Below are positions 9,131 through 10,576 of a stretch of 13,236 bases of DNA, piece after piece. The stretch lies in IMG/VR virus record IMGVR_UViG_3300032038_001305. One strand, 5' to 3'. Source of the stretch: a virus. Both the position numbers and the translations under genes were made by a program. How positions within the stretch are numbered: position 1 is the first letter of the stretch; every line of letters starts with the position of its first letter. A model generated the notes under the pieces. The model did no database searches, was not told the origin of the DNA, and saw nothing but the letters and a program-made list of their open reading frames with translations.

Positions 9131-10576
9131 ATGAGTTCAGAGCATGTAGGATATATAGTTCAAATCAATCAGCTTGACAAACACCCTAACGCAGATAGAC
9201 TCCAAATTGCAACTATTTTTGGAGCATCCGTTATAGTTGATTTGAGCGTTAAAATAGATGATATAGGAATCTATTTTCCAATAGATTTACAATTAAGTGA
9301 AGAATATTGTAACCAAAATAATCTTACTAGAAAATTAGATTCAGAAGGTAATAATATCGGAGGATATTTAGATCCTAATAAACGCAATATTCGAGCTATG
9401 AGATTTAGAGGTTCTAAATCTGAAGGACTTTATATGCCATTAGAATCTTTAAAATATACTGGAAAAACTAAGTATGAAGTAGGAGAAACTATTGATAAAA
9501 TAGATTCTCATGAAATTTGCTGTAAATATATCCCAAAAGGGAAAAATATTTATCCAACTCGAAAATTGGGTAATAAAACAAGAAAGAAAAAAGCTCCTAT
9601 TGCTCCTTTGTTTTTAGAGCATGCGGATACTGAACAGTTAGCTTATAACTTAGATGTTTTTCGTCCTGAAGATATTATTGAAATTACTCTTAAAATGCAC
9701 GGTACATCTGGAAGAACTGGATATTTACCTATTTTAAAAGGTTTTACTCATAAAATACCTTTATATACTACTATTGCAAATAAACAACCTCCTAAAAATA
9801 AAATTCTTCGTAAAATCTATGATTATATTCTTAATCAATGCACTCCTGTTTATGATTGGGGATATGTAACTGGAACAAGACGAGTCGTTTTAAATAATTT
9901 CGATGGTGGATATTATGGAGATAACTCTTTCCGTGAGGAACACGCCAAATCTTTCGAGGGAAAACTTCATAAAGGAGAAACTGTTTATTATGAAATCGTA
10001 GGCTTTATGAATGACGGAACTCCTATTATGCCATCTGTTGAAAATAATAAAATTTCAGATAAAGAATTTTCTAAACAATATGGAAAAACTACTATCTTTT
10101 CATATGGTTGTTCTCCAACTGGAGAAATTTTAAAACATGGTAGAGATGACGAAGGCAGATTTGCTATAGCTAAAAAAGTTCCTATTTCAGATTGTTATGT
10201 TTATCGTATGACCATGACTACACAGGAAGGTAATGTTATTGAATACTCTCCTTCATATGTAAGATATAGATGTGAGCAAATAGGAGTAAAATATGTTCCT
10301 TTATTATGGAAGGGTATAATTCCTAAAAATACTTGGGTTGATACTCATTCTGCAGGAGAATGGATTAAAAACCTTGCCGAACAATATTATGATGGACCTG
10401 ATCCAATAGGAAAAACTCATATTCGTGAAGGAGTAGTTATTAGATTAATTGAAAGACCTAAATTTTGTGCATATAAACATAAAAATTTTAATTTTAAAAT
10501 TTTAGAAGGTATAGCTAAAGATTTGGCAGCTGAACCAGACATAGAGGAGGCGCAAGAACTTGAAAGTGACGAATGA
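9131..10576 (+). CDS. RNA ligase (ATP-dependent polynucleotide ligase, Rnl2-like KxHG type) with an N-terminal tRNA-binding OB-fold domain (481 aa)
   Basis: The N-terminal ~110 aa carry the hallmark of tRNA-binding (Myf/EMAP-like) domains found in PheT and MetRS C-termini: KHPNADRLQIATI...FRGSKSEGLYMPL, compared with HPNADKLRV...LRGEPSEGML. The nucleotidyltransferase motifs follow. Motif I is LKMHGTSGR (T4 Rnl2 has KIHGTN). Motif III is TVYYEIVGF. Motif IV is REGVVIRL. Motif V is AYKHKNFNFK. The RBS is ATAAGGAGTGATAATTAATG. Confidence 0.7.
   Translation: MSSEHVGYIVQINQLDKHPNADRLQIATIFGASVIVDLSVKIDDIGIYFPIDLQLSEEYCNQNNLTRKLDSEGNNIGGYLDPNKRNIRAMRFRGSKSEGLYMPLESLKYTGKTKYEVGETIDKIDSHEICCKYIPKGKNIYPTRKLGNKTRKKKAPIAPLFLEHADTEQLAYNLDVFRPEDIIEITLKMHGTSGRTGYLPILKGFTHKIPLYTTIANKQPPKNKILRKIYDYILNQCTPVYDWGYVTGTRRVVLNNFDGGYYGDNSFREEHAKSFEGKLHKGETVYYEIVGFMNDGTPIMPSVENNKISDKEFSKQYGKTTIFSYGCSPTGEILKHGRDDEGRFAIAKKVPISDCYVYRMTMTTQEGNVIEYSPSYVRYRCEQIGVKYVPLLWKGIIPKNTWVDTHSAGEWIKNLAEQYYDGPDPIGKTHIREGVVIRLIERPKFCAYKHKNFNFKILEGIAKDLAAEPDIEEAQELESDE

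Follow-up and report, generated by a model that had tools for sequence, protein, structure and literature searches.

The window analysed here is a 13,236-nt stretch of viral DNA (IMG/VR record IMGVR_UViG_3300032038_001305) with a GC content of 28-36%, on which all annotated genes lie on the + strand. The gene under study, at 9131 to 10576 (+), is an open reading frame (ORF) encoding 481 aa plus a stop codon; it begins with ATG, and a Shine-Dalgarno sequence, AAGGAG, can be read at 9117 to 9122 (+), 8 nt 5' of the start. Its product is a divergent but otherwise unexceptional phage member of Rnl5, a family of ATP-dependent RNA ligases that has been described before. An earlier interpretation made from the letters alone, referred to below as the sequence-only reading, had described it as an unusual fusion of a tRNA-binding OB domain with an Rnl2-like RNA ligase. 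The ORF and every string quoted in that reading are present, namely KHPNADRLQIATI (residues 17-29), FRGSKSEGLYMPL (residues 92-104), KMHGTS, EGVVIR and KHKNF, and an N-terminal OB domain of the PheRS-beta/MetRS C-terminal (tRNA_bind-like) structural type is indeed followed by the nucleotidyltransferase (NTase) domain of an ATP-dependent RNA ligase.

The N-terminal OB module extends from residue 1 to about residue 137 (9131 to 9541 (+), the C-terminal boundary being approximate), as delimited by the matches to PF21189 (residues 9-104) and TIGR02306 (residues 10-198), by alignment with residues 7-177 of the solved Naegleria gruberi enzyme NgrRnl, and by the β-strands of the structural model. It includes HPNADRL (residues 18-24; 9182 to 9202 (+)), a motif common to the tRNA_bind OB domains of aminoacyl-tRNA synthetase (aaRS) type, and RGSKSEG (residues 93-99; 9407 to 9427 (+)), which was located in the family alignment. 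D52 (9284 to 9286 (+)) and K132 (9524 to 9526 (+)) align with NgrRnl Asp53 and Lys121, respectively, in the family profile alignment, where the index of the PDB chain is offset by one for Asp53. The NTase domain carries motif I, KMHGTS (residues 188-193; 9692 to 9709 (+)), in which K188 is the predicted AMP-accepting lysine and aligns with NgrRnl K170, followed by the putative motif III region YYEIVG (residues 286-291; 9986 to 10003 (+)), which matches T4 Rnl2 in the profile search. Motif IV, EGVVIR (residues 433-438; 10427 to 10444 (+)), aligned to NgrRnl REGLV (E312) in a sub-threshold second stretch of the profile match, and motif V is KHKNF (residues 449-453; 10475 to 10489 (+)). Motifs I, IV and V had been placed correctly in the sequence-only reading. 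The remaining 28 aa (10490 to 10573 (+)) form an acidic tail with short helices, assigned by DSSP to residues 453-465 and 471-480. No domain is appended after motif V, there being only 30 residues past K451, with two short helices predicted at falling confidence.

Conservation was assessed in 84 homologs that are 33-89% identical to the window ligase. K188, T192, S193, E288, G291, E433, G434, K449 and K451 are invariant in all of them. Conservation in the OB module is nearly as high, at 88-98%, for H18 (78/84), N20 (74/84), A21 (79/84), D22 (77/84), R93 (78/84), G94 (79/84), S97 and G99 (82/84 each) and K132 (K in 81, R in the other three). As judged by this pattern, the motifs of both domains are under selection. 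R93 is probably the counterpart of the conserved Arg in NgrRnl RLRGQLSQG, and would likewise correspond to Arg79 of DraRnl, the Deinococcus radiodurans enzyme.

This conservation bears on whether the gene is a ligase homolog that has decayed or lost its catalytic function. The weak Pfam scores of the full-length protein, the lack of any entry in the precomputed Pfam record of this very protein and the long insertions could be taken to point that way. However, the catalytic motif residues are all intact and invariant across the family, the two-domain structural model is confident, the reading frame is unbroken and preceded by a good ribosome-binding site, and homologs of 62-86% identity are abundant. 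Decay is therefore scarcely credible and a pseudogene was rejected. In four relatives (P0127, P0128, P0142 and P0173, 590-813 aa), inteins are inserted right after motif I (KxHGTS), at a point equivalent to about window residue 193 (nt ~9709); none of these intein-bearing relatives lies within the window. Both full inteins, which carry a LAGLIDADG homing endonuclease, and mini-inteins occur among them (Pfam Hint, Intein_splicing, LAGLIDADG_2). Insertion directly 3' of motif I is typical of active-site motifs and supports functionality.

Placement in the Rnl5 family was supported by four independent lines of evidence, profiles from Pfam, NCBIfam and the PDB among them. When the N-terminal fragment was scanned, PF21189 ('PHA02142 OB-fold domain') matched residues 9-104 with 27.5 bits. 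As residues 7-177 of NgrRnl reach 104 bits (E 5.5e-30) across the whole PF21189 model in a Pfam scan, this model represents the N-domain of the Rnl5 exemplar. Among the relatives, 75 of 84 match PF21189 and 78 of 84 match RNA_ligase. TIGR02306 ('RNA_lig_DRB0094'), the model for DraRnl, was the sole NCBIfam match (E 3.2e-11, residues 10-198), and in PHROGs residues 7-460 matched a single family, phrog_968 'RNA ligase' (E 2.8e-61). A profile built from 78 divergent relatives of the window ligase was compared with the PDB and found NgrRnl (5cot_A) at E 4.8e-9; the matched stretch covers OB domain, linker and motif I and places K188 on the nucleophile K170. Behind NgrRnl came T4 Rnl2 (E 4e-3) and, with a match of 23 residues, PheRS beta (E 0.19). 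A shallow family profile reached NgrRnl at E 0.01, and a single-sequence phmmer search of the window ligase against the PDB gave no match.

An AlphaFold model of the window ligase computed from a deep alignment has two domains, with pLDDT 93.2 and pTM 0.90; a first run, whose shallow alignment held no row below 63% identity to the query, reached pLDDT 54.9 and was not used. In a Foldseek search with the model, the top 13 PDB matches were all NgrRnl (E 4e-16 to 2e-13), and the NTase core superposes on both NgrRnl and Rnl2. The protein thus has the Rnl5 signature, an N-terminal OB domain and a C-terminal NTase domain with the motif I Lys and motifs III, IV and V, and shares with NgrRnl (PDB 5COT/5COU) and DraRnl (DR_B0094) the lack of a C-terminal domain. 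Motif I has the KxHG form seen in DraRnl, with motifs III, IV and V also present.

This arrangement is not an unusual fusion, as the sequence-only reading had proposed, because the order OB then NTase without a C-terminal domain is the published Rnl5 signature (PMC1807946, PMC4408790) and is found in thousands of members. Raymond and Shuman (2007) described DraRnl as a C-terminal adenylyltransferase with a distinctive N-terminal module, already termed a putative PheRS OB-fold homolog, reported a role for Arg79 in that module and listed a phage homolog (PMC1807946); that the Rnl5 N module resembles the OB domain of PheRS beta had been pointed out in 2004-2007. Unciuleac and Shuman (2015) named the clade Rnl5 and listed homologs in Aeromonas, Caulobacter, Mycobacterium and Sinorhizobium phages (PMC4408790). 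The term 'Rnl2-like' is approximate: the RNA ligase NTase domain is present, but the helical C-terminal domain of Rnl2 is absent and an N-terminal OB domain is found instead. The Rnl2 family itself (T4 RNA ligase 2, trypanosome REL1) was ruled out on the same absence, with only about 185 residues aligning. The result is mainly a correction of annotation, in that 'Rnl5-type RNA ligase' is the fitting name for the gene and its OB-plus-ligase arrangement is not new.

The window ligase belongs to a large Rnl5 subfamily of ~410-510 aa, found mostly in phages (PHROG 968/'PHA02142'-type). A word-indexed search found at least 8000 homologs, and an exhaustive search gave at least 2275 clusters at 50% identity with E ≤ 1e-3, 678 of them with E ≤ 1e-30, nearly all of 410-480 aa; close homologs (62-86% identity) are abundant. 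Among cultured phages, 379 records matched, 187 at full length, and most are annotated 'RNA ligase'; they include ~300 mycobacteriophages as well as phages of Microbacterium, Gordonia, Vibrio, Xanthomonas and Synechococcus. In UniProt, the labels of some phage entries already refer to similarity with 'Naegleria gruberi RNA ligase'. The phrog_968/PHA02142 ligases of phages, such as Bacillus phage Kirov gp99, Mycobacterium phage LeBron gp85 and Xanthomonas phage XacN1 ORF121 (424-448 aa), are full-length homologs with a like architecture (E 1e-103 to 1e-25), are annotated RNA ligase and often have a polynucleotide kinase (PNK) gene beside them. The closest cultured-phage ligase is that of Bacillus phage Kirov, at 43% aa identity, and no cultured-phage protein exceeds this value. 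Megablast of the whole window against 50,697 phage genomes found no near-identical DNA.

The window ligase differs from the solved enzyme in length. It has 481 aa, near the upper end of the family size range, compared with 340-342 aa for NgrRnl and DraRnl, to which it is ~14-20% identical. As judged by spacings measured from K170, E227, E312 and K326 of the 340-residue NgrRnl chain in the PDB, the distance from motif I to motif III is 57 residues in NgrRnl, 85 as the family median and 100 in the window ligase, and that from motif III to motif IV is 85, 127 and 145, respectively. The tail after motif V is longer than in NgrRnl and acidic, with 30 residues in the window, a family median of 24.5 and 14 in NgrRnl. 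The phage subfamily, with its at least 2275 clusters, carries two sizeable insertions relative to the solved enzyme.

A role for the OB domain was also proposed in the sequence-only reading, in which it would dock the ligase on broken tRNAs and confer specificity without a separate adaptor. The domain is not a generic OB fold but of the sub-type found in Trbp111, CsaA, MetRS-C and PheRS B2. Consistent with this proposal, the phage subfamily retains the aaRS-type HPNAD(R/K)L and RG-x-x-S-E/D-G motifs, and NgrRnl lacks the former, with PIAGAEA at the aligned position. The neighbouring RlaP family, described below, acts on damaged tRNA (PMC12776372), and tRNA is the classic target of phage RNA repair (PMC7824862). 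However, the similarity to the tRNA_bind OB domains (PF01588: PheRS beta B2, the MetRS C-terminus, Trbp111, CsaA, EMAPII/Arc1p) is sub-threshold, with 14.8 bits against a gathering cut-off of 27 over only 21 residues (9-29). A weak tRNA_bind match was found in only 5 of 84 relatives (E 0.0088-0.1), and PheRS beta lies far behind NgrRnl in the PDB profile search (E 0.19 versus 4.8e-9).

The characterised Rnl5 enzymes also argue against RNA targeting. The N-domain of NgrRnl is required for nick sealing and adenylylation but dispensable for sealing a pre-adenylylated nick (PMC4408790, PMC7261155), and N-deleted NgrRnl and DraRnl seal such nicks equally well or better (PMC1807946, PMC4408790, PMC7261155), so that this domain serves adenylylation and not nucleic-acid sealing. 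According to the structural work summarised in PMC7261155, Arg4, Lys121 and Asp53 of the NgrRnl N-domain hold the γ-phosphate of ATP and its metal, Lys121 through a γ-phosphate contact and Asp53 through a water-mediated contact to the non-catalytic metal. The positions aligned with two of these three residues are conserved here, as D52 (kept in 68 of 84 homologs) and K132. In addition, characterised Rnl5 enzymes are duplex-dependent and act on nicks in duplexes rather than on breaks specific to tRNA. The established job of the Rnl5 OB domain, a catalytic accessory for ATP use, is known to be ATP positioning rather than RNA targeting, and by analogy the OB domain of the window ligase would do the same. 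Since the OB domain positions ATP in NgrRnl and D52 and K132 are kept, tRNA targeting by the window protein is speculation that knowledge of the family does not suggest, and we consider it distinctly unlikely. It would nevertheless be compatible with ATP positioning, and a dual role of the domain is possible.

Genes encoding further candidate RNA-repair functions surround the ligase. Upstream lie a gene for an RlaP-family (RNA ligase-associating Pol-beta) nucleotidyltransferase at 5282 to 6130 (+) (PF10127 E 1.3e-5, above cut-off; phrog_388), syntenic in related contigs L007 and L011, and a gene at 6137 to 6958 (+), also syntenic in relatives, for a calcineurin-like metallophosphoesterase (Pfam Metallophos E 9.5e-15) that is a candidate 3'-end healing enzyme. 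A gene for an RNase T/DEDD-type 3'-5' exonuclease (8335 to 9114 (+); RNase_T E 1.6e-8) ends 17 nt 5' of the ligase, which it also adjoins in L007, L008 and L009. A second metallophosphoesterase, resembling the lambda/NinI phosphatases, is encoded downstream at 12262 to 13023 (+). The gene order is kept in L007-L009, whose ligases are 66-68% identical to the window ligase. There, a P-loop kinase gene (AAA_33/KTI12) comes next after that of the second phosphoesterase, and then Metallophos_2, Band-7/flotillin and PIN-PhoH genes. One or two AAA_33/KTI12 kinases, candidate polynucleotide 5'-kinases, are encoded ~2 kb 3' of the ligase (L007 13598-14083, L008 13013-14033, L009 6051-7071). The source contig of the window (ENA metagenome contig ERZ27256903:k141_783410; 13,351 bp, nearly all of which is the window) ends just before the equivalent position. 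In phages Kirov and DustyDino, a PNK gene adjoins the ligase homolog.

RlaP enzymes extend damaged RNA 3' ends by 1-2 nucleotides, restoring tRNA function (PMC12776372), and in jumbo phages their distribution tracks that of RNA ligases (PMC7824862). Together with the synteny of the neighbourhood and the PNK genes of Kirov and DustyDino, this supports a role in RNA healing and sealing. In a group of large uncultured phages of low GC content, the ligase gene is closely and conservedly linked to genes for RlaP, phosphoesterases, a DEDD exonuclease and a kinase, which supports a role in RNA repair for the phage branch as a whole. Homology, fold, synteny and the conserved catalytic residues are shown by the analysis, and from these we infer, with a probability of about 0.85, that the window gene encodes a functional Rnl5 ATP-dependent RNA ligase, which would probably perform the sealing step of a phage RNA-repair pathway.

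Several observations weigh against this conclusion. The TIGR02306 score is 42.7 bits, compared with an equivalog cut-off of 151.15, which indicates a member of a divergent Rnl5 subfamily rather than an ortholog or equivalog of DraRnl, and the full-length protein scores slightly under the Pfam gathering thresholds (23.5 and 17.7 versus 27). Of the other NgrRnl residues that hold the ATP γ-phosphate and second metal, Arg149 aligns with Q169, and Arg4, being N-terminal to the aligned region, has no clear counterpart. The protein is ~140 aa longer than NgrRnl (+43 between motifs I and III, +60 between III and IV), and its handling of substrate may therefore differ. No PNK was found in the window, as judged by Pfam and PHROGs searches and inspection of unannotated ORFs by eye, or in the 13.35-kb source contig. 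No biochemistry was found in the literature for the ~440-aa phage subfamily, and DraRnl has been tied to survival of radiation (DNA damage) and not to RNA repair (PMC5397189).

The last of these points raises a different function, namely that the ligase serves DNA metabolism by sealing nicks with an RNA 3'-OH side, such as ribonucleotide patches or primers, when the phage DNA is replicated, recombined or repaired, a role already suggested for DraRnl. Loss of DraRnl renders Deinococcus sensitive to ionising radiation, and for Rnl5 enzymes both the template and the 5'-phosphate strand may be DNA (PMC5397189). Genes for a T7 gp5.9-like RecBCD inhibitor and the DnaQ/RNase T-type exonuclease are neighbours in the window, RNase H and UDG genes lie 3' of the ligase in relatives, and actinophage homologs are located among replication and recombination genes. 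However, the genes with conserved linkage to the ligase encode RlaP, metallophosphoesterases resembling lambda phosphatase and an AAA_33 kinase, with PNK in Kirov and DustyDino; RlaP, phosphoesterase and kinase are the usual set of RNA healing-and-sealing genes (PMC7824862). Moreover, Kirov encodes a separate ATP-dependent DNA ligase nearby. A role in DNA metabolism is thus unlikely, although less so than tRNA docking by the OB domain.

In RNA repair, the window ligase would act as follows. As inferred from the family, K188 of motif I would attack ATP to form ligase-AMP, while the N-terminal OB domain, packed over the active site, would use K132 and D52 to orient the ATP γ-phosphate and a metal for this first step. 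The AMP would then be passed to the 5'-phosphate end, and attack by the RNA 3'-OH would seal the break. Characterised Rnl5 enzymes seal 3'-OH/5'-PO4 nicks in duplexes with an RNA 3'-OH strand and prefer Mn2+ (PMC4408790, PMC1807946, PMC7261155), and the substrate here would most likely be a nick whose ends a duplex or stem keeps together. For the phage, this would probably be the sealing step that reverses damage by host nucleases to tRNA or other structured RNA. Likely partners would be the neighbouring RlaP, metallophosphoesterases and DEDD exonuclease, together with the P-loop kinase encoded just downstream in relatives.

The ligase was probably not the most unusual feature of the window, that being an 823-aa protein encoded at 1965 to 4436 (+), which matches Pfam MVP_shoulder (E 1e-20) and a Vault_3 repeat. 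In phmmer comparison with solved chains of major vault protein (MVP), residues 451-769 aligned with MVP 466-810 (repeat 9, shoulder and cap helix) at E ~4e-17; by this measure the product is a genuine homolog of the eukaryotic protein. Such a homolog was found in only 3 of 50,697 phage records, all of them uncultured huge phages (462-735 kb), and a limited literature search found no paper describing a phage MVP homolog. In related contigs, the MVP gene is syntenic with the RlaP/ligase cassette and lies beside DUF2828/DUF7788 and Band-7/flotillin genes. It may be envisaged that the phage enzymes, which retain the RG-x-x-SEG motif and the HPNAD(R/K)L motif lost in NgrRnl and have gained ~100 residues of NTase insertions, form a functionally distinct Rnl5 branch. 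In that case the OB domain might both position ATP and dock tRNA, and the ligase would be the sealing enzyme of a phage RNA-repair assembly for which the MVP homolog and a Band-7/flotillin protein serve as scaffold. This combination is considered improbable.

A promoter-like element of 29 nt occurs in four near-identical copies, at 883-911, 4484-4512, 7708-7736 and 11525-11553 (+), with the consensus TTGATTTTT(T)ATAAAAA(A)TAT(A/G)(A/G)TATAAT, i.e. TTGATT-N17-TATAAT. All four copies are intergenic (0.03 expected by chance), and three are directly 3' of strong hairpins at 4452-4483, 7685-7708 and 11497-11529. The element is likely to be a class of phage promoter that divides the region into transcription units. 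The terminator hairpin (7685-7708) and following TTGATT-N17-TATAAT site at 7685 to 7736 (+) would be the probable start of the ligase transcription unit, and the terminator-like hairpin at 11497 to 11529 (+) its probable end. These signals suggest co-transcription of the ligase with the exonuclease. A match to CRISPR-DR45 at 4469-4492 was dismissed as one arm of a terminator hairpin. There were no tRNA or tmRNA genes within the window and no credible Rfam match.

Other features of the window include an HD phosphohydrolase gene at 1164-1580 (+). The T7 gp5.9-like RecBCD inhibitor, of 78 aa (7450-7686 (+); PF25708 E 4e-11; phrog_6234), is encoded inside the RNA-repair-like block, a location conserved in L007. 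A NADAR gene is apparently split between a 48-aa ORF at 11051-11197 (+) (model positions 9-49, E 0.035) and a 72-aa ORF at 11294-11512 (+) (model positions 93-163, E 1e-10), which could be either a decayed gene or an assembly error; L008 and L009 have an intact 155-aa NADAR gene between the phosphoesterase and exonuclease genes. The 3' end of the ligase gene is overlapped by 17 nt by a 157-aa ORF with a TTG start (10560-11033 (+)), which gave no Pfam or PHROGs match; its N-terminus resembles a coiled coil and its C-terminus contains Cys (CRCEIC). Small unannotated ORFs occupy the equivalent ligase-overlapping position in L007, L008 and L011.

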